In this document: positions 4,156-23,725 of the stretch, one piece after another | How positions within the stretch are numbered: position 1 is the first letter of the stretch | How the letters are laid out: every line of letters starts with the position of its first letter | Source of the DNA: a virus | Lineage: Duplodnaviria; Caudoviricetes | Reading direction: 5' to 3' (one strand) | Length of the DNA stretch: 59,291 nt | IMG/VR virus record: IMGVR_UViG_3300045996_001841 | Location: 1-59,291 of that record | Notes under the pieces: model-generated | Database searches by the model: none | What the model was told of the DNA's origin: nothing | Seen by the model: the letters and a program-made list of their open reading frames with translations, nothing else | Program-made: the position numbers and the translations under genes

Positions 4156-4178
4156 ACCACTGAAAGGAGCAATGCGCC

Positions 4179-5122: not shown

Positions 5123-5142
5123 TCGACACAAAGGAGCAGCAG

Positions 5143-5481: not shown

Positions 5482-5485
5482 GGGG

Positions 5486-5514: not shown

Positions 5515-5556
5515 GCCTGTTAGAGACGACGGAGCAAGGCACAGCAGGAGGCCGGC

Positions 5557-5868
5557 ATGGTTGAAACACTCCCCGTGATCTTTCGCGCTGGCAAGGAACA
5601 CGGCCAGATCTGGATTACGGCCGTCTTCCCCACATTGCAGGGGACCGATGATCGGAACACGTTCACGATCTACCAGCACATAGGGCAGCATGGGGCCGGC
5701 CGCTACGAGTGGTATCGCCGGACCCGGCCGGCGCGCCCCTCGGAGTATGCGGATTTGCTCAAGGAACTGCGCGGGATCTACGAAACGCCGGGACCAGGAG
5801 ACACGCCAGCGATCCGCCTCGAGGTTCGACAGCGCATGCACGCGAGTTACCGCCGACAGCGAAGCTGA
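5557..5868 (+). CDS. Phage early hypothetical protein
   Basis: AGGAGG SD; VIFR...AVFP...HIGQH...TRPA.P.EY.DLLKEL pattern that I recognise from small phage proteins. Confidence 0.75.
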   Translation: MVETLPVIFRAGKEHGQIWITAVFPTLQGTDDRNTFTIYQHIGQHGAGRYEWYRRTRPARPSEYADLLKELRGIYETPGPGDTPAIRLEVRQRMHASYRRQRS

Positions 5869-5873
5869 AAGGA

Positions 5874-5932
5874 GGCCGAAACCCTCGAGCAGTCCTCGAG
5901 GGTCCGCACGTGAAGCGTGCGCTGATGAGGCT
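5874..5932 (+). ncRNA. Hammerhead ribozyme, type II
   Basis: GGCC-GAAA-stem III (CCCUCGAG/CUCGAGGG)-UC-stem I (CGCACG/CGUGCG)-CUGAUGA-GGCU. The full catalytic core is present, with predicted GUC cleavage after 5904. Confidence 0.92.
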
Positions 5933-5937
5933 ACACA

Positions 5938-6063
5938 ATGAAAACAGGTTACACGCGACTCAGGAAACGTGACTGGTATGTGCAGGGTGGGTTCAGCAAT
6001 CCGCGCCTCTTTCGCCGGATGCGCGGCGGCGTGTGGCACTACTACCGGCTGACCTACTACTAG
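5938..6063 (+). CDS. Small basic/aromatic protein (41 aa)
   Basis: MKTGYTRLRKRDWYVQGGFSNPRLFRRMRGGVWHYYRLTYY; GAGG SD lies inside the ribozyme 3' end. Confidence 0.6.
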   Translation: MKTGYTRLRKRDWYVQGGFSNPRLFRRMRGGVWHYYRLTYY

Positions 6064-6120
6064 AGAGAGAGGGCGCAATCCCGCGCCGGCAGTCCGGCCC
6101 GAATGGGCTGAGGTGACGCC

Positions 6121-6876
6121 ATGAAGAAAACAGACAAAGACAAGCAGGACGCGATCGATCAACTGCGGGAATGGCTGAAGCCCGGGGATACGGTCTATAC
6201 GATCCTCGAGCACGTGTCCCGGTCCGGCATGAGTCGCACGATCCGCGTAGTCGTGCCTTACGTGAGGGACGACGGCAGGATCGATCACTTGCACCCCAAT
6301 TACAGCGTAGCGAAGGCGATCGGCGCGCGGCGCAAGGGCGACGGGATCGTCATGGGCGGCTGCGGGATGGATATGGGCTTCGCCCTGGTCTATGAGCTGT
6401 CCTCCGTGCTCTATGGGCATCTCCGTTGCGAGGCCTGCGGCAAGTATCCCAGCGGGGAATACCGGACGATCATCGATGCAATGATTACCTCGTCGCGTGG
6501 CGCGGATCTCGTGATCACGTGCGAACACTGTCAGGAGCGGCTGTCCGGCGGCTATCAATGCCTCGGCAAAGGCAAGTGCCCCTCGAACTATCACGTCAAC
6601 CATCGGGATACGATCCAGTGCCCCGGAACCGAGGTGTATAACCCGGACGGGCCCAACACCGGCCATCGCTGTTACTGGCAGCGGGGGATCGGGTGGGTCA
6701 TTCCGAGTGATGAAACGGATCCGGCGCGTTTGGTCAATCCCGATCCGAGTGATGAGGCTTGGATCCGGATCTGTCCGACGTGCAACGGCACGGGCCGGAT
6801 TCCCAACCCCGAAGGCCCGGAGCGGTTCGATTTGCTCCACACGGACGGATACGCGCTCCGTCATAGGTGGCTGTAA
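6121..6876 (+). CDS. Phage hypothetical protein with Cys-rich insertions
   Basis: LKPGDTVYTILEHVSRSGMSR...GCGMDMGF core plus several CxxC motifs. Confidence 0.8.
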   Translation: MKKTDKDKQDAIDQLREWLKPGDTVYTILEHVSRSGMSRTIRVVVPYVRDDGRIDHLHPNYSVAKAIGARRKGDGIVMGGCGMDMGFALVYELSSVLYGHLRCEACGKYPSGEYRTIIDAMITSSRGADLVITCEHCQERLSGGYQCLGKGKCPSNYHVNHRDTIQCPGTEVYNPDGPNTGHRCYWQRGIGWVIPSDETDPARLVNPDPSDEAWIRICPTCNGTGRIPNPEGPERFDLLHTDGYALRHRWL

Positions 6877-7058
6877 TGTATCGCGTAAATTGGGACAACT
6901 GCGCGCATGCGTGCGGCACCTTTCCGGATCGGTTTGCTACGTATGAGGAGGCAGACGCCTACGGGCGCGCCTGGCAGGCTGAGATGGAAGCCGTCGATCC
7001 GGTTGATCCGGTTGAGGACGGCTACTCCTACGAAGTGATCGAGGAGCCGGAGCCATGA
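6876..7058 (+). CDS. Small acidic hypothetical protein
   Basis: TAATG coupling (MYRVNWDN...). Confidence 0.6.
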   Translation: MYRVNWDNCAHACGTFPDRFATYEEADAYGRAWQAEMEAVDPVDPVEDGYSYEVIEEPEP

Positions 7059-7354
7059 TCAAAGCTACAGACGCCGCCGTGCAACTGTGGATTAACCGGT
7101 ATGGGCCGCCGTGGGCGGCCCGCCCGGTATCGATTCACGAGATCATCAACCAGAATGCCGACTGCCCGAAACGGCGCGGCAAAGAGCTGGAGCGGGCGAC
7201 CGCCCTGGCGTCGATGCGCGCGTGGGTCCGGTCGGACCTGCGGCGAGGGGATTCGGCAGCGGGATCGTTGCATCGTCTGCTCGTGGTGCTCGATCCGTGC
7301 AGCCGGCGCGCCAGCATCGCGCGACGCTGGCTCCGGAGACTCGAGGGAGCCTAG
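7055..7354 (+). CDS. Hypothetical protein
   Basis: ATGA coupling. Confidence 0.55.
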   Translation: MIKATDAAVQLWINRYGPPWAARPVSIHEIINQNADCPKRRGKELERATALASMRAWVRSDLRRGDSAAGSLHRLLVVLDPCSRRASIARRWLRRLEGA

Positions 7355-7357
7355 ACC

Positions 7358-7540
7358 ATGCTGAAAACAACGATCCGGAAAATCACGAACCTGCGGAATC
7401 CGGGGAAGCCCTGGTCGCTGCAATGGCAAACGGAGAACATGCCCGCGCCCGCGTTCTGGTATTTCGCCACGGAGGACGAAGCGCAGCAGGAAGAACGAAA
7501 CCTGCACACGCAGCGGCGTTCACAAAAGGATCTCCGATGA
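7358..7540 (+). CDS. Hypothetical protein
   Basis: GGGAG SD; fits gene chain. Confidence 0.6.
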   Translation: MLKTTIRKITNLRNPGKPWSLQWQTENMPAPAFWYFATEDEAQQEERNLHTQRRSQKDLR

Positions 7541-7755
7541 GCGAGCCCACGATCCACTTTGCGCGGCGAAGCGATGCCGCAGAGCGCGTCGAAATGGGGC
7601 CGGCGTGGTGCAACGCCGGCCGCGCCTCGCGCACGGAGTTTGAACAATACGTGACCGCGATCTTCGATCACGTCACGTGCAAGAACTGTCTCCGGAGCGC
7701 GCGGGCCTACCTGGAGCGCGTCGATCCGAGCCCTGTGGGTTGGGAGGAAGGTTAA
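7537..7755 (+). CDS. Hypothetical protein (H...C...CxxC)
   Basis: ATGA coupling (MSEPTIHF...). Confidence 0.6.
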   Translation: MSEPTIHFARRSDAAERVEMGPAWCNAGRASRTEFEQYVTAIFDHVTCKNCLRSARAYLERVDPSPVGWEEG

Positions 7756-7829
7756 TGGAGATCGCTCTACTCTGCGCGGCGGCCGCGCTCGTCGTTGGCG
7801 TGTTGGCGTTTGCATGGGGAGATAGATAA
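7755..7829 (+). CDS. Tiny membrane peptide (24 aa)
   Basis: TAATG-coupled at both ends; MEIALLCAAAALVVGVLAFAWGDR. Confidence 0.5.
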   Translation: MEIALLCAAAALVVGVLAFAWGDR

Positions 7830-8131
7830 TGCATCTCACCTGGTCCTACGTCGAAGCGGGCGGTTATGACTGCATGACGGACGCGCTCTATGTGGTCGAT
7901 CTCGAGCGGAAGAACCCGCAGATCCCGATCGCGGTGATGGATCTGGCGAACTACGGTCAGGAGAACAACGAACCCGCGCACCAGGACAGCGTGCGCGCGG
8001 CGGAGCGCTACGTGAAAATGTTCGTGCACGCGCCGGCCATGTGCCAGCTCTTGAAAGACCTTCAGCCGGACGCGACGCCGGAGCGCGCAGCGGAGATTCA
8101 ACGGTTAGTTGATGCAGTGAGGGTGCCATGA
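7829..8131 (+). CDS. Hypothetical protein
   Basis: Coupled ORF of 100 aa. Confidence 0.65.
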   Translation: MHLTWSYVEAGGYDCMTDALYVVDLERKNPQIPIAVMDLANYGQENNEPAHQDSVRAAERYVKMFVHAPAMCQLLKDLQPDATPERAAEIQRLVDAVRVP

Positions 8132-8406
8132 AAATCCAGACACGTCTCGTGCGTCCGCACGGATCGAACGCGGGCGCGTTCTACGTCACCGACCTGACGG
8201 ACCGGACGCCGGGGGTGATTGCTGCGGGCTTGGCGGAACAGCACGCGCGGGAGCTGGCCGCCGCGCCGGCGCTGCTCAAGTTGCTGATCAAGGCCGCGCC
8301 GTTCTGCCCGGTCACGGTGCAGGACGAGATCGCCATGCTGCGCGCGTTAATGGGGTTGTGCGAGCGGTGCCACGGAAACGGCTGCTGCCATTGTCAAGGA
8401 GACTGA
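8128..8406 (+). CDS. Hypothetical protein with C-terminal CxxCxGxGCxxCxG
   Basis: ATGA coupling; DnaJ-like Cys repeat. Confidence 0.65.
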   Translation: MKIQTRLVRPHGSNAGAFYVTDLTDRTPGVIAAGLAEQHARELAAAPALLKLLIKAAPFCPVTVQDEIAMLRALMGLCERCHGNGCCHCQGD

Positions 8407-8407
8407 T

Positions 8408-8602
8408 GTGCGACAAACCCTCGAGCAGTCGATCCTGCGTCGCGTCCGCCGCTACAGCCCGGACGAAGATCCCTGCACGTGCACGGACCAGGGCCCGCGG
8501 TGCCCCGCGTGTCAGCGCACGAAGGCTCACGTCAGCAAGCTCTATCCGTGCGAGCTGTCGGACAGCACCCTCGAGGAGCTGACGAAGCCGGGGGTGTCCT
8601 GA
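8408..8602 (+). CDS. Small Cys-containing hypothetical protein
   Basis: AAGGAG SD; CxC...CxxC. Confidence 0.55.
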   Translation: MRQTLEQSILRRVRRYSPDEDPCTCTDQGPRCPACQRTKAHVSKLYPCELSDSTLEELTKPGVS

Positions 8603-8766
8603 TGGGCGGCACGTCACCAGTCTGCCCGTTCTGCCGCAAGCTCTGCGCGGCGGGCGGGGTCAAGGATCACGTCAAGGTGAAGCACCCGGAGCAGTATACG
8701 AAGTGGGTCAAGCTCGGCCAACTGCCGTATTGGCACTACGACGAGGACGGGGAGCTGAAGTTCTGA
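8602..8766 (+). CDS. C2H2 zinc-finger protein
   Basis: CPFC-x11-H-x4-H followed by PE. Confidence 0.6.
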   Translation: MGGTSPVCPFCRKLCAAGGVKDHVKVKHPEQYTKWVKLGQLPYWHYDEDGELKF

Positions 8767-8777
8767 TAGAGGGAACC

Positions 8778-8975
8778 ATGACGATCGTAATCACGCTGCA
8801 CACGCACGAGGACGAGGCTGCCCGACAAGAGGGGAGTCTGTTTGAGACGGCGCGTCTTCTTGAGTTGGTCACGGACCGACTGCTCGCCGGGAGTTGGCCG
8901 ATGAACGGGCCGGTCTATGACGCGGGTGGGAACCAGTGCGGCACGGTCACGGTGCATGTCACGCCAGCGTCCTAA
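8778..8975 (+). CDS. Hypothetical protein
   Basis: GAGGG SD; MTIVITLHTH... Confidence 0.6.
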   Translation: MTIVITLHTHEDEAARQEGSLFETARLLELVTDRLLAGSWPMNGPVYDAGGNQCGTVTVHVTPAS

Positions 8976-9117
8976 TCGTCGCTGGCATTTCGTGCCGAAG
9001 CGCTGCCGATGGTGCCTGCGGTGGTTTGGCACCTTCCGCGGCATGGAGGACCACGTGAAGGCGAAACATCCGGAGAAGACGTGGCAGGGGTTCTGCAAAT
9101 CGTGGTGGACGTGGTGA
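8956..9117 (+). CDS. C2H2 zinc-finger protein
   Basis: CRWC-x12-H-x4-H followed by PE, with canonical hydrophobic positions. Confidence 0.6.
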   Translation: MSRQRPNRRWHFVPKRCRWCLRWFGTFRGMEDHVKAKHPEKTWQGFCKSWWTW

Positions 9118-9127
9118 AGGAGGACGT

Positions 9128-9499
9128 GTGTTGAAACGAATGGTGATAGGTGCCGTGGTGCTTGGCGCGTTAGCCGTGCCAGCGAGCGCGCAGTTCCCGA
9201 ACTGGCTGTGGAACGGGCACATGGATTACCCGCTGCCGGCGAGCCCGTGTCCGTTCAACGTGGACATCGTGCACACGCAGGGCATCGTGCACCAGGGGCA
9301 GTTCTGGACGCTCACCACCTGCGCGGACAATACCGTGTGGATGCGGCAGTTCACCGCCCCGCTGCCGGGTCCGCCGCCCGTGCCGGAGCAGTGGAACGCT
9401 GACGCCTCGAGCATCACCTGCCCCGGGCCGCACAGTGCGTGCGCCCTGCTCCCGGCCGGCACGTATGACCGCGTGTGGGCGAACGGGATCGGGCGATGA
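9128..9499 (+). CDS. Secreted hypothetical protein
   Basis: AAGGAGG SD; signal peptide ...LGALAVPASA|Q; 4 Cys. Confidence 0.7.
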   Translation: MLKRMVIGAVVLGALAVPASAQFPNWLWNGHMDYPLPASPCPFNVDIVHTQGIVHQGQFWTLTTCADNTVWMRQFTAPLPGPPPVPEQWNADASSITCPGPHSACALLPAGTYDRVWANGIGR

Positions 9500-10038
9500 C
9501 GTTGGAAATCTGCGACGGCCACGACGTTGGCAATCGTCCGTTGTCGTGCATCAATTGCGCGCGTGCGCTCGGACGCAAGGAAGGCGAGGAACGGGCGCTC
9601 CTCTCCGCGCCCCCTCCCCCGCCGTCAGCCGAGGGGCTGCGGACGCTGGTGCAACACGTCAGGCATTTCCTAGGGCCTGATTGGGGCGAGCCTACAGAGC
9701 CACATCATCAGGAGTCGTTTCTGGTGATGGCGATCAACCATCTGGCCGGTTCACGCGACAGCTTTAGAGCTGCATGGGAGGCCGAGGAAGCGAAACGCAA
9801 GGAACTGGAATCCCTGCTCGGGCAGGCCGAGGCCGACATCCACGCTCAGGGTTGCGCTGGAGGACCGATGATGAATACCTATCGTCTCGTGGTGTTGGCG
9901 CTTCTCGCGTCCATCAAAGCGGATACGGCGGACATCGCTTGGATTCAAGCTGCATACTCAGTCGTGACGATCATCATCTGGATGGCTGTGATAGTGGAGT
10001 TCATAAGGACGACGTGGAAGCGAAAGGAACCGCGATGA
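9496..10038 (+). CDS. Hypothetical protein with coiled coil and C-terminal TM segments
   Basis: ATGA coupling; possibly a fusion of two small genes. Confidence 0.55.
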   Translation: MTLEICDGHDVGNRPLSCINCARALGRKEGEERALLSAPPPPPSAEGLRTLVQHVRHFLGPDWGEPTEPHHQESFLVMAINHLAGSRDSFRAAWEAEEAKRKELESLLGQAEADIHAQGCAGGPMMNTYRLVVLALLASIKADTADIAWIQAAYSVVTIIIWMAVIVEFIRTTWKRKEPR

Positions 10039-10391
10039 CGTCCGAGGACGCCGACGATTATGCGTGGGCGTTGGATCGCGTGACTCGCATGTGCGCGGCG
10101 AATGAAGTCAACGCCCAAGTCTACGGCGTGAAGTTGTTGAAGGGCCAAGGCTACCCGAATGAGACGTTTAGCTATGCCCAAGACTATCAGGCCCTGTCAA
10201 TCGTCCTGTCTGCGCTCCAGCAGGCCGACCAGGAGCGGGACCAGCTCCGCGCCGAACTGGCAGCGGCGAGGGAGGCGTGTCCGGTTTCGCGGATGGATCG
10301 TTTCGCGGATGCGTCACTGCTCGCCGTAGTCAATGAACAGGTGTTTCAGTTGTTCCGGAGGATGCAATCCCGGGCACCGGAGGACCGATGA
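10035..10391 (+). CDS. Hypothetical protein
   Basis: AAAGGA SD; MTSEDADD... Confidence 0.65.
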   Translation: MTSEDADDYAWALDRVTRMCAANEVNAQVYGVKLLKGQGYPNETFSYAQDYQALSIVLSALQQADQERDQLRAELAAAREACPVSRMDRFADASLLAVVNEQVFQLFRRMQSRAPEDR

Positions 10392-10498
10392 CTGTCGCGA
10401 CGTTACTTGTGGTGTGTCTGACAACCCACCTTGCCGCCGTTGCGGTTGGCATCACAATCGGCCGGCGGTTGTGGAGATGGTGGGAATCGAGAGCGTGA
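10388..10498 (+). CDS. Small membrane peptide (36 aa)
   Basis: GGAGG SD, ATGA coupling, hydrophobic stretch. Confidence 0.45.
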   Translation: MTVATLLVVCLTTHLAAVAVGITIGRRLWRWWESRA

Positions 10499-10536
10499 AC
10501 GGCGGCATGTCGCCGTCGTAGTGTGAAGGAGTGTGT

Positions 10537-11529
10537 ATGCGACGAAAACTTCGAGCAACGCTGATCGTCTGTCTGCTCGGCCTGACGACAACCGTCTCAG
10601 CGTTCGTGTTGTCCGGTCACAGTTGGGGCACGACCGAGGTGCCCTACTACGTGAACGCCACGAACCAGGACGGGGTGTCACAGACCGCGGTCCTGGCGGC
10701 GGTGCAGGCCGCTGCCGCGGAATGGAACGCCACCTCGGACGTGCAGCTCGTCTACGCCGGGCTGACCACGACGACCGGGTTCACGCTCAACGGCAAGAAC
10801 GAGATCGTGTTCGTGCCGGGCTCGAGCCCGACGACGGCGCACGCCATTGCCAAGAAATACGTCGACAGTGAGGGCCGCATCTTCGAGGCGGACATCAACC
10901 TCTATGACGTCGGCGTGAACTGGTTCGGCGGCAGCACGGGCTGCTCGAGCGGCTACTACATTCAGGACGTGGTGACGCACGAGCTGGGACACCTGTTCGG
11001 GATCAGCCACTCGAATGTCAACGAGGCCACCATGTGGGGCAGCTCGGGCTTCTGCGCGACGTGGAAGCGCACGCTCCACGCCGACGACATTGCGGCAATG
11101 GCGGAAATGTATAGCGCGGCCCCGCCGCCGCAGGGCGACACCTACGTGACGGTGCCGGCCTCGGTGCCCGACACGAGCCTCATTTGCATCGAAGGCGCCA
11201 ACAGCCAGTCCGGGTGCATCAGCGCCGGCGCGCTGCGCGAACAGTTGTTTGGACCCAACGAGCCGCCACCCACGGGCCCGACGCTCGCGATCACGGCCTG
11301 GCTCCTTGGCACCGATGGGAAGTGGCGCGTGCAGTTCGATTGGGGGAACATCACTTCGACCAACGTCTACATCTACAAGAACGGCGTCCAGTGGAAGAAC
11401 GTCGCGGCGACGCAGGACGTGGGTGTGTATTACAGCACGGGGAGCACGAGCCCGGGGCCCTACACGTTCAAGGTCTGCGAAGCCGGCACGACGATCTGTT
11501 CGCCCGACGTCACGGGCAGCGGCAGCTAA
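10537..11529 (+). CDS. Secreted matrixin-family (M10/metzincin) metalloprotease
   Basis: HELGHLFGISHS zinc motif, ATM Met-turn, LHADDI, signal peptide, C-terminal beta domain. Confidence 0.88.
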   Translation: MRRKLRATLIVCLLGLTTTVSAFVLSGHSWGTTEVPYYVNATNQDGVSQTAVLAAVQAAAAEWNATSDVQLVYAGLTTTTGFTLNGKNEIVFVPGSSPTTAHAIAKKYVDSEGRIFEADINLYDVGVNWFGGSTGCSSGYYIQDVVTHELGHLFGISHSNVNEATMWGSSGFCATWKRTLHADDIAAMAEMYSAAPPPQGDTYVTVPASVPDTSLICIEGANSQSGCISAGALREQLFGPNEPPPTGPTLAITAWLLGTDGKWRVQFDWGNITSTNVYIYKNGVQWKNVAATQDVGVYYSTGSTSPGPYTFKVCEAGTTICSPDVTGSGS

Positions 11530-11556
11530 CGTTCAACGCAAGTCTGGAGGATCACG

Positions 11557-12606
11557 ATGTTCACTAGAATGAGCCGCCTCACGAGGGTGGTCACGATCAT
11601 CGGCGTGGTTGTCGTCAGTCTCCTCGCGTATGAGCACGTCTCCGCGCAGTCCGGGTGTTCTGGCTGCACGGCCCAATCGGCGGACCACTCCAATGCGGGC
11701 ATGTTCCGGCTGACCGCCTCGACCACGCGCGGCGCGGGGTTCACGGATTGGCTGCGCGTGATCGCCTATATCGTGGACCTGCCGACGCACTGCCCGCAGG
11801 GGCAGGCGACGACGGGCGCGTGCCTAGACGACGCGATTACCGGGAATGCTGTTGTCACCGCGGCGTCGCCCGGGTGCGGCATGTGGGCCGGGATTTCCCA
11901 CCACGGCTACCGGATCGGGGGGACCGGCTACGCGATTCAGGAGAATCGCGAGACGGAACTTTACGCGGGCCCGTGCGAGACGCCGCCCGACGAGTGCGGA
12001 GAAGACGAGTATTGGGACGGGGAGCGGTGTATTCCGATCTACTGCCCGATCATCATCAACACGGATCAGGACCAGAAGTATAAGCTCACGTCGGCGGATA
12101 AGGGTGTGCTGTTCGACATCGACGGCGACGGCGACCTCGATCAGGTCGCCTGGACCGAACTGGGATCGTCCACAGCGTTCCTTGCGCGCGACGTGAACGG
12201 CGACGGACAAATCACCAGCGGCAAGGAGCTGTTCGGCAACTACACGGTCGAGGGGCAACAGAACGGCTTCGACGCGCTCCTCGCGGTGGCGACGCGCGTC
12301 GACGGTCGGGCGCGACCCCTGCTCAATTCCACCAGTGCGCTGTTCAATCAACTGCTGCTGTGGCGGGACGTGAACCACAATGGCATCAGTGAGGCGGACG
12401 AACTGACGCCAGCCGGCGAGGAGATTTACGGGATCGCGATGGCGTATCAGCAGCACTTCCGCAAGGACGGTTTCGGCAACGAGTATCGGTATCGCGGGTG
12501 GGTCTACACCGTTGGACCCGGCGGCAATCCGATGCACAACCCGGACGCCGCAAAGGCGCGGCGCCGGTTCGTCTTCGACGTCAACCTCGCGGGAGGCGGA
12601 CAGTAA
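11557..12606 (+). CDS. Secreted Ca-binding DxDGDG-motif protein
   Basis: Signal peptide; FDIDGDGD...AW...FLARDVNGDGQITSGKELFGN...LLLWRDVNHNGISEADEL domain; Cys-rich N-half. Confidence 0.75.
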   Translation: MFTRMSRLTRVVTIIGVVVVSLLAYEHVSAQSGCSGCTAQSADHSNAGMFRLTASTTRGAGFTDWLRVIAYIVDLPTHCPQGQATTGACLDDAITGNAVVTAASPGCGMWAGISHHGYRIGGTGYAIQENRETELYAGPCETPPDECGEDEYWDGERCIPIYCPIIINTDQDQKYKLTSADKGVLFDIDGDGDLDQVAWTELGSSTAFLARDVNGDGQITSGKELFGNYTVEGQQNGFDALLAVATRVDGRARPLLNSTSALFNQLLLWRDVNHNGISEADELTPAGEEIYGIAMAYQQHFRKDGFGNEYRYRGWVYTVGPGGNPMHNPDAAKARRRFVFDVNLAGGGQ

Positions 12607-12638
12607 CCCTTCAACCCGTGGCCGGGGCCTCGAGCCTC

Positions 12639-12659
12639 GGCCACGGCACAGTCAATGCA
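12639..12659 (+). promoter_or_regulatory. sigma54-like -24/-12 promoter
   Basis: GGCCAC-GGCACAGTCAATGC (GG-N10-GC); near-identical copies at 13790 and 18109. Confidence 0.6.
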
Positions 12660-12672
12660 GAGTAGGGTCCCC

Positions 12673-12846
12673 ATGAGTGATGAACTGGTCAACCTGAAAG
12701 AAGCCGCCGCGATCCTGCGGTCGACGCCGCGGACGGTCAACAAGCTGATTGCCGAGGGCAAGCTGCCGGCGTCGCGGATCTCGGACCGCGTGGTGCGGAT
12801 CCGGAAGGCGGACGTCGAAGCGCTGCTGCCGAAGAAGGCGTCATGA
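12673..12846 (+). CDS. Excisionase-like helix-turn-helix DNA-binding protein
   Basis: LVNLKEAAAILRSTPRTVNKLIAEGKLPASRI...RIRKADV (HTH_17-like). Confidence 0.85.
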   Translation: MSDELVNLKEAAAILRSTPRTVNKLIAEGKLPASRISDRVVRIRKADVEALLPKKAS

Positions 12847-13061
12847 ACATGCTCGGCCAGATCCGCCAGCAACAAGCCTGTCGCGCGGCGGCCGATATGC
12901 CGAAGGGCACCATCGTCACGCTGCTCAAGCGGCCACGCTTCGGCGTGCGGCCGATTCGACGCAACAAGGAGCGTGTGCACGGGGTTACGACTCACGACGT
13001 GATCAAAGGCTCGATCGTGTGGGTCACGTTCTTCGGACCAGGCTCAGCGAGGATCGCATGA
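12843..13061 (+). CDS. Hypothetical protein
   Basis: ATGA coupling. Confidence 0.6.
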   Translation: MNMLGQIRQQQACRAAADMPKGTIVTLLKRPRFGVRPIRRNKERVHGVTTHDVIKGSIVWVTFFGPGSARIA

Positions 13062-13477
13062 CCGAACCCACTCTCCTCGAGGCCGTCGAAGCGCAGTTCG
13101 CGTTGCAGGATCTCCTGCGCACCGACGAGCGCGCGGCCAAGCGCCAGATCAGTGACGCCTTTCACGCGGCCACGGGCTACTACGCGCCGGGCTGGGAGCT
13201 GATTGACTACAGCCACCAGACGCGCCTGAAGCGCGACGCAGCCTTCGCGGCGTGGCTCGGTGAGCGCAAGGCGCAGAACCAGGCGGAGCTGCGGGCCCTG
13301 GTCGCGGCGCACCGGATGCTGGTCGAGCGGATGCAACCGCTGGTCGACGCGATCGAGGAAGCCTACAACTACCTGAACGGACCTTCATGCGGATCGCATT
13401 GCAACTGCCTCCTGCACCGCATGGAGAGCGTCCTCGGCAAACCCGATTCGCGCGGCACGGCGCCGGAGACTTACTGA
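13058..13477 (+). CDS. Hypothetical protein
   Basis: GAGGA SD; MTEPTLLEAV... Confidence 0.7.
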   Translation: MTEPTLLEAVEAQFALQDLLRTDERAAKRQISDAFHAATGYYAPGWELIDYSHQTRLKRDAAFAAWLGERKAQNQAELRALVAAHRMLVERMQPLVDAIEEAYNYLNGPSCGSHCNCLLHRMESVLGKPDSRGTAPETY

Positions 13478-13647
13478 TGATCGGCCTCCTCTGCCTGTTC
13501 GGCGGCTGGGTCCTGCTCCTCGCCACCATCCTTCTCATGTGGTGGGATGCGTGGCGGGATCGGGACTGGTCGCTCCTCGGCGCCGTCACCCTCCTGCTGC
13601 TGTCCGTTCTCGGTGGCACCCTCGGCTGGTTCCCGACCATCCGATGA
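13477..13647 (+). CDS. Small two-TM membrane protein
   Basis: TGATG coupling; two hydrophobic helices. Confidence 0.6.
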   Translation: MIGLLCLFGGWVLLLATILLMWWDAWRDRDWSLLGAVTLLLLSVLGGTLGWFPTIR

Positions 13648-13874
13648 CTCCGAAACTGTGGAAGGTCCACCTTGAGTCCGCGGATGGTTCCCGCCGAATC
13701 ATCTACACGCGCTACCTCGGACGCTTCCTTCAGGATTGGCAGACCGGGCGCTTGTATGAATACATCGCGATCGATCTCCATGCTGGCGAGGCCACGGCAC
13801 GGTCCTTGATGGGACCGAGCCATGCGAAAATTGCTCGTTCCCCTGCTCCTGTTGCGCCTCTCCGTCCCCGCTGA
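13644..13874 (+). CDS. Hypothetical protein
   Basis: ATGA coupling (MTPKLWKVHL...). Confidence 0.45.
   Translation: MTPKLWKVHLESADGSRRIIYTRYLGRFLQDWQTGRLYEYIAIDLHAGEATARSLMGPSHAKIARSPAPVAPLRPR
13790..13810 (+). promoter_or_regulatory. sigma54-like -24/-12 promoter (variant -12)
   Basis: GGCCAC-GGCACGGTCCTTGA; predicted +1 near 13821, next to ATG 13822. Confidence 0.5.
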
Positions 13875-15180
13875 GGGGCTGACCCGACTCGACATCCCCA
13901 ACTGCGTCGGCGCCGACAACAACGTCGCCGGTGGTTACGTGGCCTCCGTCCGAGACAGCCATCTCGAGACGCACGCCGGGCGGATTGAGCTGCCGCCGGG
14001 CGGCAACTTCCTCTACCCCACCATCGCGCGGGACTCCACCCGCTTCGCTGGCCTCGGGAACCTGAACGATCGGGTCTACGAGTCCGCCGGCGGATGGCAG
14101 GATCACGGCCTCGGGTTCGGCGTCAACCCGGTCATCTACGACGTGCGCGACGTGCTCCGGATCGTGTGGGGCCCGGGCACGCCGACCGGGAGCCAGGGCT
14201 GGCGCTACCTGGCCGACAACGGGAACCTCGTCACCGGTGACGAGTCCTACGCCGACCCGGCGCGCCACCTGTGGGAATACACGGACCGCGGCGACATCTC
14301 CTGCGGCCAGGGCGGCGACGAGAACGGGCTCCCGTGCCTCGTGCGCGGCCGGCGCGTGCAGGTCGAGCCCGGTATCGTGCGGTGGGTGGACTTCGATCGC
14401 GAGGGCGACACGCTGGCGCTGGCGTGGGTGCGGTTCGACACGGCCTCGTGCGGGCTGCTGTGGCTGACGGTCGCCGAACTCGAGGCGCTGCCGACGTTCA
14501 CGGTGCCCGGCGGCACGACCCCGCCGCCCCCGCCACCTCCCCCGCCGCCGCCCCCGCCCCCGCCCCCGGTGCAGGAGCCGGCGAGCTTGCTTGACACGGT
14601 GCGCGCGGTGCGCGCCCGGGTGGACGGCCAGCCGACGAACCCGCAGCTCGCGGCCATGCTGAACGAGATCGCCTGGCTCCATCGGGCCGAGGGGTGGGGC
14701 TTGTCGAAGAAGCCGGGTGGGCACAATTGCCCGACGCCGCCGCCGGCCGCGGTCCTGATTGCCTGTGACATCCTCCACCACAAGCCGACGAACCTCCTCT
14801 ACGACGTCTTCGGGAGCGTGGAGGCCGGCGCGACGCCGCAGTGGGGAAGCGTCGGACCCCCGCTGACGCCGGACCGGGAGTGGCTGGCACCCATCGCCCC
14901 CTCGGGCACGGAGCCTGAGCCGCCGCCCCCAACCGATGACCTGAAGCTCGTGGTCGCGGTGCTCCAGGCCCGGGTCCTGGCCCTCGAGGAGACGGTGCGA
15001 AGGGTCGACGACACCTTGGTGTCGATGGGGCAGCGCGTAGGCGCCCTGGAGAACGGCGTGCCCGAGGACCGGGTGTCAGCCCTGATCGACCAGGCGATCG
15101 CCTCGCTCCGGGTCACGGGACGCACGGAGCGGGCCTTCTTCGGACATTCTCACCAGGTCGAACTGAAGGTCGTGCGGTGA
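13822..15180 (+). CDS. Secreted multidomain protein with poly-Pro linker and C-terminal coiled coil
   Basis: 452 aa; signal-like N-terminus, beta-rich domain, long Pro run (14521-14568), paired Cys. Confidence 0.75.
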   Translation: MRKLLVPLLLLRLSVPAEGLTRLDIPNCVGADNNVAGGYVASVRDSHLETHAGRIELPPGGNFLYPTIARDSTRFAGLGNLNDRVYESAGGWQDHGLGFGVNPVIYDVRDVLRIVWGPGTPTGSQGWRYLADNGNLVTGDESYADPARHLWEYTDRGDISCGQGGDENGLPCLVRGRRVQVEPGIVRWVDFDREGDTLALAWVRFDTASCGLLWLTVAELEALPTFTVPGGTTPPPPPPPPPPPPPPPPVQEPASLLDTVRAVRARVDGQPTNPQLAAMLNEIAWLHRAEGWGLSKKPGGHNCPTPPPAAVLIACDILHHKPTNLLYDVFGSVEAGATPQWGSVGPPLTPDREWLAPIAPSGTEPEPPPPTDDLKLVVAVLQARVLALEETVRRVDDTLVSMGQRVGALENGVPEDRVSALIDQAIASLRVTGRTERAFFGHSHQVELKVVR

Positions 15181-15386
15181 ACAACACGTTCTGGCGGGAC
15201 CGACATCAGCGCTTCTTCCTCGAGACACCCCGCCGAATGCGTCGGACGGTCCGGGTCGCCGAGTCTCCACTCGGCGGCCCGAACTTAATCATGCGCGCGA
15301 TATACGAGGCGACGTCCCGGCGCCCGCTCCAGAGGTGGTGGGCGTGGGTGTCACCGCGCTGCAAGGCTTGGTTCGCCCGCTTTTGA
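15177..15386 (+). CDS. Small basic hypothetical protein
   Basis: GTGA coupling. Confidence 0.45.
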   Translation: MNNTFWRDRHQRFFLETPRRMRRTVRVAESPLGGPNLIMRAIYEATSRRPLQRWWAWVSPRCKAWFARF

Positions 15387-15887
15387 GAGTGCTCGCAGAT
15401 ACGGCGGGCCAGTTTCCAACAGCTTTCGCTCCTTTTCAGATACATGCACGGTCCTCACGAAGTGGCGCTGCCGGAGGACTTGCACAGCCCACCGAAGGGT
15501 ATTGCGATCCATCTGCGGGAGCCGCGTATACAGCTCCGGGGTTGTCGCCGGCGCCACGGCCAGTGCCGTGTAGACCTGCTGCAAGGACGGTCCGAGTCGT
15601 GCAGGACGGACCTTCGTCACCGTGTAACGCACGCGAGGCGAGGGCTCCGGCACCGGGTCGGTGCGACGGACGTAGGGCGCGATCTGATCGACCAGGCCGG
15701 ACAGCACGAGCGTCGTGGTGTCGAGGCGAGGTTGACGTCGCTGCTCACGCGCCAGGTAGCCAAGCGCCAGCATCTTGCGAGGCTGTCGCACGGCGGAGTG
15801 GAGGAGGGAGTCGCGAAGTTGCTCGCGAACGGTGGGATTGCGGACTGCCGCAGCAAGTCCGTCAGGCGTGACGTAAAAGTTCAGCAT
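15351..15887 (-). CDS. Putative winged-HTH regulator (lone antisense gene in the + arm)
   Basis: C-terminal SLQQVYTAL...TTPELYTRL..MDRNTLRWAVQVLRQRHFV pattern; fills a gap in + strand coding. Confidence 0.6.
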   Translation of the reverse strand: MLNFYVTPDGLAAAVRNPTVREQLRDSLLHSAVRQPRKMLALGYLAREQRRQPRLDTTTLVLSGLVDQIAPYVRRTDPVPEPSPRVRYTVTKVRPARLGPSLQQVYTALAVAPATTPELYTRLPQMDRNTLRWAVQVLRQRHFVRTVHVSEKERKLLETGPPYLRALSKAGEPSLAAR

Positions 15888-15900
15888 GCCTGAAAAGGGA

Positions 15901-15916
15901 AGCAAACACCGCTCCA
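15901..15916 (-). promoter_or_regulatory. sigma54-like -24/-12 promoter, leftward
   Basis: TGGAGCGGTGTTTGCT (GG-N10-GC); ATG 15887 falls at about +4. Confidence 0.45.
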
Positions 15917-15970
15917 AATTGTCCACACCCGAAACACTAAACATTTTCGTGGTCGCGATTACAGACCTGT

Positions 15971-17869
15971 ATGAAAAGTTCACAAATGGCCCTGCCAATT
16001 CGACACAGTGTGAAACCCGGATGGTCGCCTGATACTCCCCCCGACCTCGCCAACCATAGCACAATCTACTTGGATGCGGAAACCAACGGGGTGAAGTGGG
16101 CCGAAGGGGCGCGGCCGGTCGGGTGGGCGGTGCGCGCCGGCGGCGTGTCCCACTACCTCCCCTTCGGACACCGCGGCGGCGGGAACCTGTCCGAGGAGAC
16201 GGTGAAGGAGTGGGCGCGACGCGAGCTGCGCGGCAAACAGATCATCAACCACTCGACGAAGTTCGACATGCTCATGGCGCGGGCGTGGGGCGTCGACCTC
16301 GAGGCGCAGGGCTGCACGTTCCGTGACGTCGCACACTCCGCGGCGCTGCTCGACGATCATCGGAAGGACTTTGGGCTCGACGCACTCGGGCGTGACTACC
16401 TCGGACTCGGGAAGTTGGACGCCGGGCCGAAGAAGGACCTGGCGGAGCTGCCGGCGTGGGACGTGTCGGAGTATGCGAAGCGGGACGTCGATCTGGTCGA
16501 TCAGCTCTACGCCACGCTGGCCCCGGAACTGTCTGCGCAGCAGCTCGATGTCGTGCAGCAGCTCGAGGACGACGTGCTACCGGCCGTCGTCGAAATGGAA
16601 TGGAACGGAATGCCGCTCGACGTCTATCTCTGCGACGCATGGGAACGAGAGAGCAAAAGGCTCCTCGAGAAGATGCGGTGGGAGGTGGCGAAGCGCCTCG
16701 GGTTCAGTCCAAATCCGGACTCGCCCAAGGACATGGTAAAGGTGTTCCACCACTTCCGCATTGGGGTCCTGTTCACGGCCAACGGCACACCGTCCTTCAC
16801 CAAGGACATCATGAAGGCCGCCGCGGCGCAGGACGACAGCGGCACCATTCAGCTCCTCTACGAGATCGGCAAGCTCGTGGATCTACGCTCGAAATACCTC
16901 GAGAAGTATCTCCGCGAGCACGTCAACGGGATCATCCACGGGAACCTCTGGCAGCTCATGACGGACGACGGCGGCACGGTGTCCGGCCGCTTCAGCATGT
17001 CGAACCCGAACCTCCAGCAGGTGATGGGGATCGACAAGCACCTCCGCGAATACGGGTTCATTCCCGCGCGCCTCGTCCAGTTCCTCGGCTACACGTGGGA
17101 CCAGTTCAAGTTCAAGGTGATCAAAGGCGAGAAGGTCCCCTACGCCTGGTATGTGAAGGAGCTGTTCCGGAACCCGGACGGCGCCCTCTGGCTGGCCGCC
17201 GACGCGAAGCAGATCGAGTATCGGATCTTCGGCCACTACTCCGAGTCCGAGAACATCATTGGCCGCTACCGCGCCGACCCGGAGACGGACTTCCACAACA
17301 TCGTCCAGGCCATGATCCTCCCGGTTCGCCCGGACATCAACCGAACCGAGACGAAGACAGCGAACTTCCTGAAGATTTTCGGCGGCGGGAACGGCGCACT
17401 TGCGCGCAACCTGAACATCGACGACGCTCTCGCGGCGGAGATCAACGCCGCCTACGACGAGGCCTTTCCCGAGGCCAAGGCGTTGCTTCAGCGTGTAATG
17501 GGCGTCGCCGAATCGCGCGGGTGGGTGAAGACCATCCTCGGGCGCCGGTGCCGGTTCCCGCTGGTGAAGGTGCAGGGCCGCGGCGGCAATACGTGGCGGG
17601 AGCGGGAGCGCACGCACAAGGGCCTGAACGGCGTCGTCCAAGGCAGTGCGGCCGACGTCAACAAGCGCATCATTGTCGAGGTCCATCGCGCCCGCAAGCA
17701 CCTCGAGGTGACACCGCGCGTGACGGTGCACGACGAGTGGAGCGGTGGGCTCCACAACCCCGCGAAGGAATCCACGGTCCGAGATTTGCTGAACACCCAA
17801 TACATCCCCTTCAAGATCCCGATCCTGTGGGACGTGAAGACCGGTCGCACGTGGGGCGACTGCAAATAA
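15971..17869 (+). CDS. polA: DNA polymerase family A with 3'-5' exonuclease
   Basis: Exo I LDAETNG, Exo II NHSTKFD, Exo III YAKRD; SGRFSMSNPNLQQ; motif A DAKQIEYR; motif B KTANF; QGSAAD; motif C VHDE. Confidence 0.95.
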   Translation: MKSSQMALPIRHSVKPGWSPDTPPDLANHSTIYLDAETNGVKWAEGARPVGWAVRAGGVSHYLPFGHRGGGNLSEETVKEWARRELRGKQIINHSTKFDMLMARAWGVDLEAQGCTFRDVAHSAALLDDHRKDFGLDALGRDYLGLGKLDAGPKKDLAELPAWDVSEYAKRDVDLVDQLYATLAPELSAQQLDVVQQLEDDVLPAVVEMEWNGMPLDVYLCDAWERESKRLLEKMRWEVAKRLGFSPNPDSPKDMVKVFHHFRIGVLFTANGTPSFTKDIMKAAAAQDDSGTIQLLYEIGKLVDLRSKYLEKYLREHVNGIIHGNLWQLMTDDGGTVSGRFSMSNPNLQQVMGIDKHLREYGFIPARLVQFLGYTWDQFKFKVIKGEKVPYAWYVKELFRNPDGALWLAADAKQIEYRIFGHYSESENIIGRYRADPETDFHNIVQAMILPVRPDINRTETKTANFLKIFGGGNGALARNLNIDDALAAEINAAYDEAFPEAKALLQRVMGVAESRGWVKTILGRRCRFPLVKVQGRGGNTWRERERTHKGLNGVVQGSAADVNKRIIVEVHRARKHLEVTPRVTVHDEWSGGLHNPAKESTVRDLLNTQYIPFKIPILWDVKTGRTWGDCK

Positions 17870-17872
17870 TTA

Positions 17873-17901
17873 TTGACGGGCTCGTAGCCCGTCTGTAGAC
17901 T
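17873..17901 (+). promoter_or_regulatory. sigma70-type promoter containing an inverted repeat
   Basis: TTGACG-17 nt-TAGACT; GACGGGCT-cgt-AGCCCGTC overlaps the -35 box and spacer. Confidence 0.6.
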
Positions 17902-17913
17902 CTGGAGCATTCC

Positions 17914-18108
17914 GTGAAGAAACCGAGAAAGCCGGTGATGGTGCGTGACCCGGAGGCGATCCTCTACGGGCAGGTAGTGCGGGCGATCAATGGGTATGAT
18001 CGGCGCACCTGCTACAGCCGCGATGGGGTTACCCGCGTGATGGCCGCAGTCGCGGATCGCTTTGGAGTGAAGCTCGCCAAGATCGTGCGAGTCGTCGGCG
18101 AGTTCTAA
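17914..18108 (+). CDS. Small possible DNA-binding protein
   Basis: 64 aa; VMAAVADRFGVKLAKIVRVV is HTH-like. Confidence 0.55.
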   Translation: MKKPRKPVMVRDPEAILYGQVVRAINGYDRRTCYSRDGVTRVMAAVADRFGVKLAKIVRVVGEF

Positions 18109-18129
18109 GGCCACGGCACGGTCCATGCT
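18109..18129 (+). promoter_or_regulatory. sigma54-like -24/-12 promoter
   Basis: GGCCAC-GGCACGGTCCATGC (GG-N10-GC), intergenic, heading the replication operon. Confidence 0.6.
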
Positions 18130-18233
18130 TCCGTTCGGGGAACCAGAACCATCATCAACCATCGTGCGAGAGGGCCTGTGTGCGCATCCCGCGTGCCCGG
18201 CTCTCGCGCCGTGCCCTGTTCATGAGAGGCCCC

Positions 18234-18614
18234 GTGGCAACCGAAAGCGAACTGACTGGCAAAGTCCTCCGCGCTATCAAGCAGCGTTTCCCTGGCAGCT
18301 TTGCGATCAAGATCAACGACCGGACGACGGCCGGGATTCCTGACGCCATCCTCGTCGTGCAGGGCTTCGTGTTCTTCGTCGAGTTCAAGAAGATGGAACG
18401 CGGCGAGTCGGCTGGCGACCTGTGGGCCAAGGTGTCGGCCATTCAGCGTGCGATGATGGCGCAACTCGTGCGCGCCGGGGCGCGCGTGTTGCTCGTTGGC
18501 CTGCGCAACGTGAAGGAGCACGTGGTGTGGGACATTGACGACGCCGGCGGGGCGACACCGCTGCTGCTTGGTTTCGATAACCTCCTCGAGCTGCTGGACG
18601 AGGCCACCCGCTAG
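18234..18614 (+). CDS. VRR-NUC (PD-(D/E)XK) nuclease / resolvase
   Basis: TESEL...GIPDAILV...FFVEFK...SAIQ motifs. Confidence 0.85.
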   Translation: MATESELTGKVLRAIKQRFPGSFAIKINDRTTAGIPDAILVVQGFVFFVEFKKMERGESAGDLWAKVSAIQRAMMAQLVRAGARVLLVGLRNVKEHVVWDIDDAGGATPLLLGFDNLLELLDEATR

Positions 18615-18997
18615 TGGCCTGCTACGCCGTCTCCCTCAACCGCCGCACCGTCTCCGGCGCCATGAACCCGCGGTGGAAGGGGCACACCCGCCTCCATCGT
18701 GACGACGTGAAGGACATTCGCCAGTGGGTCCGGAGCGAAGGCTTCGGGATGGCGCTGGTCGACCAGGTGGCCGCGCTGCAAGAGGCGTATCCGCTGAATG
18801 CACGCACCCTCGAGGACGTGATCCGGAATCAGTCGTGGTTCGACGCCACGTATGACCGCACGGTCCCCCTTTTGCTAGAAGAACCATCGTCCCCCATCGT
18901 CCACTCCGGACCGATGTTGTATCTGATTCTGTTGGCGCTGCTAATACGCGGCGCACTCGGAGGCACCCCTCGTGGAACTGCTCGAAGCCGTCCTTGA
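18614..18997 (+). CDS. Hypothetical protein
   Basis: Coupled ORF; HTH-like middle and hydrophobic C-terminus. Confidence 0.6.
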   Translation: MACYAVSLNRRTVSGAMNPRWKGHTRLHRDDVKDIRQWVRSEGFGMALVDQVAALQEAYPLNARTLEDVIRNQSWFDATYDRTVPLLLEEPSSPIVHSGPMLYLILLALLIRGALGGTPRGTARSRP

Positions 18998-19799
18998 TCT
19001 CGACCGTCGCCTCGTGGCGATCGATCTGGAAACCACCTCCGCGGCGCCCTCGCAGGCGCGTATCGTGGAGATCGCCGTCATCGCCATCGACCCGGCGCGG
19101 TATGAACGAGCCCCTGGCGACGCTGCGGAATTGCTCGTGCCCGCCAAGCGCACCGAATGGTGGACGCTGGTCAACCCCGGCGTGAGCATCCCCGCCGAGG
19201 CGACCGAGAAGCACGGGATCAAAGATGAGCATGTGCTCGACAAGCCCCGCTTCGAGGCGCTGGCGCCGCGGCTGGCCGCCGCGCTCACCGGTGTCGACTT
19301 CCTCGGCTACAACGTGCGCTACGACCTCGAGGTTCTGGCGTGCGAGTTCGAGCGGGTCAAGCAGCCGTGGGCCCCGGGCGATGGGCGCGCGATCGATCCG
19401 CTCCGGTTGTGGCAGGTGCAGTCGCCACGCACGCTGTCCGACGCGCACCAGGAGTTCGTCGGCACGCCCCTCGAGGACGCGCACTCCGGACAGAACGACA
19501 TTGCCGGCACGCTGCGCGTGCTGGTCGGGCAGCTCGCGCGGTGGCCGCAGCTCCCGCACACGGTCGCCGGGCTCGACGCGCTGCTCAATCCGAAGAACCC
19601 GAACCACGTGGACCCGGGTGGCCGGATCGTGTGGCGCGATGGCGTGGCCGTCATGAACATCGGCAAGCACAACGGCCTGCCGCTCAGCAAGGTGCCTCGG
19701 TCCTATCTCGAGTGGGCGCTCGGCGCCGACTTCCCGCTGGCCGTGAAGGCCATCTTCCGTGACGCCCTGGCCGGCAAGTATCCGCAGAGGACCGCATGA
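18972..19799 (+). CDS. DEDDh 3'-5' exonuclease (DnaQ/ExoX-like)
   Basis: IDLETT, HGI, GYNVRYD, AHSGQND; C-terminal IGKHNG..LSKVPRSYLEW. Confidence 0.9.
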   Translation: MELLEAVLDLDRRLVAIDLETTSAAPSQARIVEIAVIAIDPARYERAPGDAAELLVPAKRTEWWTLVNPGVSIPAEATEKHGIKDEHVLDKPRFEALAPRLAAALTGVDFLGYNVRYDLEVLACEFERVKQPWAPGDGRAIDPLRLWQVQSPRTLSDAHQEFVGTPLEDAHSGQNDIAGTLRVLVGQLARWPQLPHTVAGLDALLNPKNPNHVDPGGRIVWRDGVAVMNIGKHNGLPLSKVPRSYLEWALGADFPLAVKAIFRDALAGKYPQRTA

Positions 19800-23080: not shown

Positions 23081-23231
23081 AGTCAAGAAGGATCGCAGAC
23101 AAATCCGCAAGGCCCTCGGGCCTGAAGTCGTCGACGGCATCCGCGTCCTCGGCAAGCGGACCGATCTCGCCACGCACGTGCTGACCCGAGGGTTCTTCGG
23201 GCGGCTGCGGTGGCTGCTGAGGGGGCGCTGA
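23064..23231 (+). CDS. Small basic protein (55 aa)
   Basis: GAGGAGG SD before GTG; coupled to the next gene. Confidence 0.55.
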   Translation: MGREARVKKDRRQIRKALGPEVVDGIRVLGKRTDLATHVLTRGFFGRLRWLLRGR

Positions 23232-23725
23232 TGGCACGGAATTGGGCGTTCATGCAGGACCGGTTCCCGGTGCTGCCCGAGGAGCCGACCTACGAGGACG
23301 TGCTCCAGGCGGTGCGGGATTCGGTCGCCGGCTACGAGCTGCCGGCGCTTGGCGAAGTGCTGACCGGCATCCTCGAGCGCAAGGCGAAGGCCGAGGAGCT
23401 GATGGCGGGGATCGAGGCCGAGGAGAAGGGGATCCAGTCCGTCATCATCCGCATGCTCGAGGACCGGGGGCTCACGAGCCTAACCACGAAGAACGGGATG
23501 AAGTTCGCCCTCGACCCGCAGGTCGACGCCAAGGTGCCGCAGGATCAGCGCGAGGCGCTGGTGAAGTGGATCGAGGCCAACAGCATGAAGTCGTTACTCT
23601 CCGTCCACGGGCAGACGCTCTCGGCCATGTGCCGCCGGCGCCTCGAGGCGGGGGAGGAGCTGCCGGACGGGGTGGAGATGGTGCCCCGGAATCAGCTCAA
23701 GGTATCCGGGCGCGCCCGGAAATAG
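23231..23725 (+). CDS. Coiled-coil phage replication-module protein
   Basis: VHGQTLSA...GEELPDGV motif, typical of the gene preceding SSB in polA phages. Confidence 0.7.
   Translation: MARNWAFMQDRFPVLPEEPTYEDVLQAVRDSVAGYELPALGEVLTGILERKAKAEELMAGIEAEEKGIQSVIIRMLEDRGLTSLTTKNGMKFALDPQVDAKVPQDQREALVKWIEANSMKSLLSVHGQTLSAMCRRRLEAGEELPDGVEMVPRNQLKVSGRARK

Follow-up and report, generated by a model that had tools for sequence, protein, structure and literature searches.

Sigma54 promoters and phage transcription

Promoters of the sigma54 class are defined by the consensus TGGCACG-N4-TTGCW and by the requirement for an AAA+ enhancer-binding protein, sigma54 being the only bacterial sigma factor that is unable to open DNA without an ATP-driven activator. 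Leaderless mRNAs, for their part, are known from sigma70-type promoters, as in the case of lambda cI transcribed from PRM. According to one paper, phage use of sigma54 is rare yet not unprecedented, with Pseudomonas phage YuA strictly dependent on the host factor (PMC5053324), a dependence that another paper also reports together with a single sigma54-like promoter (PMC10914365). Host-sigma54-dependent phage development is already known, and YuA is the one published case that the literature search returned; the search additionally brought up a putative sigma54-like protein encoded by Pectobacterium phage Q19. The present analysis concerns the 59,291-nucleotide genome of an uncultured soil phage (Caudoviricetes; IMG/VR record IMGVR_UViG_3300045996_001841), referred to as the window, which is the whole stretch of DNA analysed. 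It carries a repeat in three copies, a minus-strand site and one additional site that resemble sigma54 promoters, and four of these five sites stand at a nearly constant, short distance before a start codon.

The reading favoured here, which the sequence evidence makes moderately probable, is that these sites are weak and variant promoters of the sigma54 class, set at a spacing that predicts leaderless messages. All three copies of the repeat, together with the sites at 15916-15901 (minus strand) and 27098, would be -24/-12 promoters recognised by the RNA polymerase of the host, and they would drive the DNA-metabolism ('middle') genes of the phage. At four of the five sites the transcripts would begin 1-3 nt before the AUG and would be translated as leaderless mRNAs, and the promoter at the third repeat copy would give a leader of ~93 nt.

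The repeat and the five sites

The 19-mer GGCCACGGCACRGTCMWTG has exact matches at 12639, 13790 and 18109, all on the plus strand, and allowing up to three mismatches added no further match in the window. In 100 shuffled sequences the mean was 0.15 matches, and only one shuffle reached three. The conserved block, (A)GGCCACGGCACRGTCMWTG, ends on both sides, with unrelated flanks, and its copies lie at gene boundaries and are oriented like the downstream genes. The best-conserved bases are GGCCACGGCAC, with a near direct repeat, GGCCAC/GGCAC. Among the first 80 entries listed, a 15-mer scan of IMG/VR gave only single matches, and no close relative with the same repeat. Contigs from four soil runs show no listed difference at any site and include long pieces identical to the window, which makes them uninformative on conservation of the sites and on transcript starts.

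Copy 1 (12639-12658, plus strand) follows the stop of the gene 11557-12606 and reads CGGCAC (GG at 12645-46) and ATGC (GC at 12657-58), with the GG-N10-GC spacing and a core score of 13.0 bits in a position weight matrix (PWM) built from the sites of related phages; its -12 C is 14 nt before ATG 12673. Copy 2 (13790-13809, plus strand; core score 9.6 bits) reads CGGCAC-N5-TTGA and lies 12 nt before ATG 13822, a start codon that can be taken as fixed since the protein opens with the signal-peptide-like sequence MRKLLVPLLLL. Copy 3, CGGCACGGTCCATGC (18109-18128, plus strand; core score 11.8 bits), starts at the base that immediately follows the stop codon of the gene 17914-18108 and has its GG at 18115-16 and its GC at 18127-28, again as GG-N10-GC. 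The minus-strand site, TGGAGCGGTGTTTGCT (15916-15901; core score 5.2 bits), has the same spacing in the form TGGAGC-N5-TTGC, 14 nt before ATG 15887. The additional site, CGGCACCATCTGTGCA (27098-27113, plus strand), scores 12.8 bits, ranks fifth in the window and stands 13 nt before ATG 27126; it has only the sigma54-like core in common with the repeat copies.

All sites except copy 2 therefore have GG-N10-GC, and at all except copy 3 the distance from the -12 base to the start codon is 12-14 nt. A GGAG-type Shine-Dalgarno sequence, present at many other genes of the window, is absent before 12673, 13822 and 15887(-). A first-pass annotation, made from the sequence before this analysis, had reported the three copies and the minus-strand site, GG-N10-GC in three of these four with GA in the copy at 13790, and the lack of a clear Shine-Dalgarno sequence at the three genes, all of which the coordinates bear out. 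Its predicted transcription starts, 1-3 nt before ATG 12673, 13822 and 15887(-), likewise agree with -12 bases found 14, 12 and 14 nt upstream, given a start 12 nt downstream of the -12 base.

Sigma54 likeness within the window

By sequence alone, the sigma54 likeness of the sites within the window is moderate and barely beyond chance. The repeat copies differ from TGGCACG-N4-TTGCW at 2-3 of the 12 specified bases, and the exact pattern TGGCAC-N6-TGC occurs twice in the window against 0.64 expected. The PWM scan that the first-pass annotation had proposed gave a divided result: copies 1 and 3 rank 8th and 9th of ~118,000 positions, most of the higher ranks being intragenic, and there is no window-wide enrichment. 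The extended pattern GG..C before TTG is common to the window repeat and the sites of the relatives.

Unlike the generic scan, the position of the sites relative to start codons strengthens the case. A site of at least 8 bits lies 11-15 nt ahead of only 3 of the 3,485 ATG or GTG codons in the window, among them the gene starts 12673 and 27126. With a core score of at least 9.6 bits, reached at about 1e-4 of positions, 80 genes and a 3-nt window, some 0.03 such gene starts are estimated to arise by chance; three are seen, the third being 13822, via copy 2 at 9.6 bits.

A scan of 11500-19000 found a single sigma70-like promoter, TTGACG-N17-TAGACT (17873-17901, plus strand), before the gene 17914 and none before 12673 or 13822; with 0.8 expected for the one found, this promoter is weak evidence alone. 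A reading of the repeat as an extracytoplasmic function (ECF)-type or sigma70-type promoter was rejected, there being no conserved -10-like element at a fixed distance after the copies.

The same layout in related phages

A search of IMG/VR with the family A DNA polymerase of the window as its single query found no relatives, and the relatives were collected with an alignment of polymerase homologues, which gave 75 IMG/VR loci and 80 metagenome loci. No cultured phage close to the window was found: blastn of 12400-18400 against phage records was without match, and tblastn of the polymerase returned no phage record at 60% identity or more, the matches listed lying near 30%.

No site of at least 16 bits is present in 140 of the 155 loci. 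Loci rich in canonical sigma54-type sites are L209/L210, L181 (genome G003), L139 (G001), L162 (G002) and L185 (G004), and nearly all of their sites are oriented with the genes. Counts made with the PWM are partly circular in these phages, since the matrix was trained on them, which does not apply to counts of the exact, untrained pattern TGGCAC-N6-TGC. Against the numbers expected from shuffles, this pattern occurs 8 times in L209 (0.34 expected), 7 times in G003 (0.67) and 3 times in G002 (0.42), with weaker cases in G001 (6 against 2.3) and G004 (3 against 0.81).

The spacing to start codons recurs as well. Among 37 sites of at least 16 bits in six relatives, 12 have a start codon that opens an open reading frame (ORF) of at least 40 aa and follows the -12 C at exactly 13 nt (eight of them) or 14 nt (four). 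No start lies at 12 or 15 nt, about 1 of the 37 would be expected at 13-14 nt, and random control positions gave 6.2% for the whole 12-15 nt range. The L209 homologue of the window nuclease has a canonical 20.3-bit site 65 nt before its ATG, an arrangement that resembles copy 3.

In a midpoint-rooted FastTree phylogeny of 131 polymerases, whose support values were not inspected, the window falls in a clade of eight leaves together with L208, L250, L211, L119, L210, L245 and L223. L185 and L181 belong to the next larger clade outwards (18 leaves), and L139 and L162 lie elsewhere in the tree.

Some of these relatives have features of their own around the sites. Palindromes of the CCGGAATCCGG type (GGAATCCGG/CCGGATTCC) are found in G003 (L201-L203; ~53090-53128 and ~55815-55854) and G004 (L207; ~60700-60950), where they precede several canonical sigma54-like sites by 5-35 nt, two of the palindrome-bearing sites in G004 being divergent and ~50 nt apart. 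They may be the binding site for a regulator acting beside the -24 element; the window, unlike G003 and G004, has no palindrome of this type. In the complete genome of G001 (L196, L198), which has terminal repeats, canonical sites are concentrated towards the two ends (359-12451 and 52191-53016), before small genes and with a common downstream block, TGCATATGGGTRAGGC-ATG, which suggests that sigma54-type promoters drive early genes in that phage. Apart from replication proteins, the only protein common to the window and G004 is one of 108 aa (window 4736-5062; G004 60383-60709(-); 37% identity), whose gene stands directly behind a 13-nt-spaced sigma54-like site in G004 and has an ordinary coupled start in the window.

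The minus-strand gene and its orthologues

The minus-strand site precedes a gene for a 178-aa protein (15351-15887, minus strand) that is divergent from the DNA polymerase gene and has homologues only in L209/L210 and L245/L223, whose ORFs are 43-49% identical to its C-terminal 67 residues. Third codon positions vary most in these comparisons (28, 19 and 38 differences over 63 codons), and no plus-strand ORF over the same interval has a homologue; on this comparative evidence, 15351-15887(-) is a real gene. The orthologues in L209, L245 and L223 are likewise divergent from the polymerase gene, and each is preceded by TGGCAC-N5-GTGC, 14 nt and ATG; at the orthologous position the window has TGGAGC-N5-TTGC, 14 nt and ATG. 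Judged by gene order and spacing, the site 15916-15901 is a positional orthologue of the canonical sites that three sister loci carry.

The protein itself has no database homologues outside its own cluster, and its sequence matches in the PDB are not significant (for example CarD, E 0.6). A structure model has a pLDDT (the per-residue model confidence) of 84-92 for residues 90-150, and its best fold matches are winged-helix regulators, at non-significant values (E > 0.3); the C-terminal domain is probably a winged helix. In L209, a further canonical site (within 9505-9770) lies 11 nt before ATG 9532 and 5 nt before the in-frame ATG 9526, which open a plus-strand ORF of 79-81 aa antisense over the 3' part of the winged-helix-like gene.

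Activation of the putative promoters

The first-pass annotation had recognised no AAA+ activator in this phage, and the searches agree. No match to PF00158 was obtained in a six-frame search of the window at E <=0.1, nor one to the sigma54 family PF04552 (Sigma54_DBD) in a six-frame search, and among 60 distinct ORFs scanned with Pfam or PHROG none was recognised as an RNA polymerase, a sigma factor or an enhancer-binding protein. The same two families gave no match above cut-off in G001-G004. Lacking a gene for an AAA+ enhancer-binding protein, the phage would need either a host activator or a factor of its own of a new kind, the 178-aa winged-helix-like protein and the HTH_17 protein being candidates. 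No motif is common to the upstream regions of all five sites, the only shared words being 7-mers found in three of them at differing positions. The GGCCA next to the -24 element, which lies outside the sigma54 elements, may be a site for such a factor.

A search for the host in a genome collection returned only a 3.7-kb contig of a Peribacteria metagenome-assembled genome (MAG) and, in an Acidobacteriaceae MAG, a stretch of 30% identity, both uninformative. A myxophage link, considered from a 25%-identity capsid match, was rejected, Mx8 being without strong sigma54-like sites.

A bolder proposal, speculative and distinctly unlikely on present evidence, is that soil phages including this one run part of their programme from sigma54 promoters fused to start codons, and that a new, small, non-AAA+ factor lets the sigma54 holoenzyme open them without a bacterial enhancer-binding protein. 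Candidates for such a factor are the winged-helix-like protein encoded beside the polymerase gene, or a protein binding the palindromes and the GGCCA extension. The favoured reading has consequences that do not depend on this bolder one: if the sites work as sigma54 promoters, sigma54 use by phages would be recurrent in soil viromes, sigma54 promoters could couple directly to leaderless translation, and phages would achieve activation although they lack an activator gene; the identity of the activator would then be a question directly testable with a handful of defined promoters.

Weighing of alternative explanations

Several observations weigh against reading the sites as sigma54 promoters. 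The sigma54 consensus with up to three mismatches has 84 matches in the window against 91 expected, so that the window is not enriched. No site in the window reaches a core score of 16, and scores of at least 12 are found at 7 sites against 2.66 expected, with a shuffle maximum of 8. The five sites score 5-13 bits, compared with 16-24 bits for the comparison sites of the relatives. All three copies carry C, not T, before the GG, the site 15916 reads TGGAGC, and copy 2 has GA at 13808-09 instead of the near-invariant -12 GC. The conservation of the repeat is itself placed awkwardly, with the conserved GGCCA 5' of the -24 element and a -12 region more variable than the spacer. As for the spacing, copy 3 is ~93 nt upstream of the probable nuclease start, ATG 18222, and hence not near-leaderless, and the start at 12673 is not certain because a possible true start of the first gene, ATG 12655, lies in the same frame within the -12 element of copy 1. 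The case is further weakened because the four relatives nearest by polymerase (L250, L208, L211 and L119) show no strong sites in the available DNA. The near-leaderless sigma54-like promoters proposed in the first-pass annotation are upheld in part. The sites fit the -24/-12 architecture and, copy 3 apart, the 12-14 nt spacing, and relatives repeat the layout with canonical sites; on the other side stand the weakness of the window's own sites, the missing -12 C of copy 2 and the long leader of copy 3.

The main rival explanation treats the repeat as a phage-specific operator or promoter element whose sigma54 likeness is incidental. The protein bound there would come from the phage itself, for instance the HTH_17 protein whose gene follows copy 1 or the winged-helix-like one of 15351-15887. 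This explanation would account for the best-conserved bases extending 5' of any sigma54 element with their near direct repeat, for the absent -12 C of copy 2 and for the lack of overall sigma54 enrichment in the window. Copy 1 lies immediately before a DNA-binding gene, an arrangement typical of autoregulation, and the 28-bp repeat of YuA is annotated as a promoter needing a phage cofactor. Such a protein would leave unexplained the fixed spacing of 12-14 nt to start codons, seen equally at the canonical sites of the relatives, as well as the orthologous gene with its canonical sites and the site 27098, with its sigma54-like core only; in addition, no -10-like element follows the repeat, and the repeat is not palindromic. 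On this balance an operator of the phage's own is rather unlikely. The sigma54 reading and binding by a phage protein are also compatible, and both can hold for the same repeat.

Two other explanations carry less weight. The repeat could act in RNA by terminating transcripts, marking a processing site or signalling translation, for instance with its 3' WTG serving as a start codon. Copy 1 does contribute GGCCACGG as the 3' arm of a strong, GC-rich 13-bp hairpin (12616-12646, plus strand; -33.6 kcal/mol, z -2.47; no U tract) that follows the stop of the gene 11557-12606, and ATG 12655 and ATG 18125 occupy the same repeat position and start reading frames of 63 and 72 aa. A comparable hairpin is missing from copies 2 and 3 (z -1.19 and +1.40, respectively), so that no fold is common to the copies; no U tracts follow them, and no Rfam family was matched. 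The 72-aa ORF lies partly over the nuclease gene in another frame and is not called as coding, and the TTG of copy 2 opens just ~22 codons, all of which makes a function in RNA improbable. Least probable, with a very slight chance of being right, is that the repeat is a functionless remnant of local duplication or a chance recurrence. There are three copies only, and two unrelated viral contigs contain the 19-mer as well, one copy in each, apparently within coding sequence. Against this stand the 0.15 copies expected by chance and the placement of all copies at gene boundaries in gene orientation; because the flanks of the copies are unrelated, the repeat is not a segmental duplication.

Genome organization around the sites

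The phage record is complete, with direct terminal repeats of 127 nt and a GC content of 64.4%, and has 80 called genes; no tRNA genes were found in the window. The sequence was found in soil metagenome runs, and no RNA runs were found among the sequencing runs that contain it. Small genes of unknown function occupy approximately the first 10 kb, where canonical sigma70-type promoters are visible, such as TTGACA-N17-TATATT before 1970. This promoter, directed towards 1970(+), and the divergent TTGACA-N17-TACTAC, directed towards 1095(-), flank a gene-poor stretch of 874 nt with a low GC content of 54% (1096-1969), likely an early control region. An 83-nt direct repeat, 78% identical between its copies, precedes two early genes (4089-4171 and 5056-5138); the stems of its central hairpin differ entirely between the copies with pairing kept, and the flanks are conserved, ending in AAAGGAGCA ahead of the start codon. 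A conserved structured leader is one possible interpretation of this repeat, a terminator-promoter cassette another.

The DNA-metabolism genes lie on the plus strand between 10.5 and 31.5 kb, and encode an M10 peptidase, the HTH_17 protein, the family A polymerase, a VRR-NUC-like nuclease, an exonuclease subunit, a methyltransferase, a helicase, a primase and a repair exonuclease. Downstream of copy 1, the nearest gene (12673-12846, plus strand) encodes the 57-aa HTH_17 (excisionase/MerR-like) DNA-binding protein (Pfam PF12728, E 5e-11; PHROG 66). Copy 2 is followed by the gene of a 452-aa protein (13822-15180, plus strand) that has a signal-peptide-like N-terminus and a poly-proline linker and is not assigned to a family, no match being found in Pfam or PHROG; the linker of this secreted-looking protein is encoded by a run of CCN proline codons (14513-14581). 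The polymerase gene (15971-17869, plus strand; Pfam PF00476, E 8e-45) encodes an N-terminus that is conserved from ~15971. The VRR-NUC-like nuclease (18222-18614, plus strand; PHROG 93, E 3e-10) has homologues in the relatives, and the gene starting at ATG 27126 on the plus strand is that of the DNA-repair exonuclease (PHROG 704). Other proteins encoded in the window include one with a dATP/dGTP diphosphohydrolase N-terminal domain (PF18909; 30348-30917), a Pam3 gp33-like DUF7307 protein (23210-23725) and a polynucleotide-kinase-like PHROG match (29515-30138), which hint at nucleotide-pool or DNA-modification functions. Beyond 31.5 kb the structural genes, including those of the major head protein and the large terminase, follow on the minus strand through to the end.

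Comparison with known systems

A known phage for comparison is YuA (Yuavirus), which resembles the present phage in having a genome of ~59 kb without an RNA polymerase of its own; its GC content is ~64%. Three of its fragments are annotated in GenBank as having '-24/-12 consensus' promoter activity, and no enhancer-binding protein is annotated in bases 1-50,000 of that record. YuA is nevertheless not a close relative: it shows no DNA match and is absent among the polymerase matches listed. Its -24/-12 fragments lie in the structural (late) region and score at most 10.5 bits with the matrix of the relatives, and no geometry abutting start codons is seen there. YuA was also considered as a sequence model for the repeat and rejected, its middle repeat being unlike that of the window and no strong sites being found with the relatives' matrix.

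With canonical bacterial sigma54 promoters the window sites share GG and GC 10 nt apart and a core of the form CGGCAC...WTGC. They differ from them in their weaker matches, in the GA of copy 2, in the absence of common upstream activator sites and of an activator gene in the phage genome, and in abutting start codons. In the search of titles and abstracts, no description of sigma54 promoters fused to start codons in phages was found, and the papers that mention both sigma54 promoters and leaderless mRNAs are, by their titles and abstracts, not about such coupling. As to leaderless mRNAs, PMC12754779 defines them by at most 5 nt between transcript start and start codon, and the leaders of 1-3 nt predicted for the window would be within that definition.

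Further counterparts are the related phages themselves (G001-G004, L209/L210 and L245/L223), which have little gene content in common with the window apart from replication genes. Their sites are canonical (16-24 bits) and numerous, compared with the weaker ones of the window. They are alike in encoding family A polymerases (33-46% identity), in being soil-type phages with a GC content of 60-67%, and in carrying sigma54-like sites that are oriented with the genes, many of them 13-14 nt before start codons. The layout abutting start codons is much clearer in several of the related phages than in the window.

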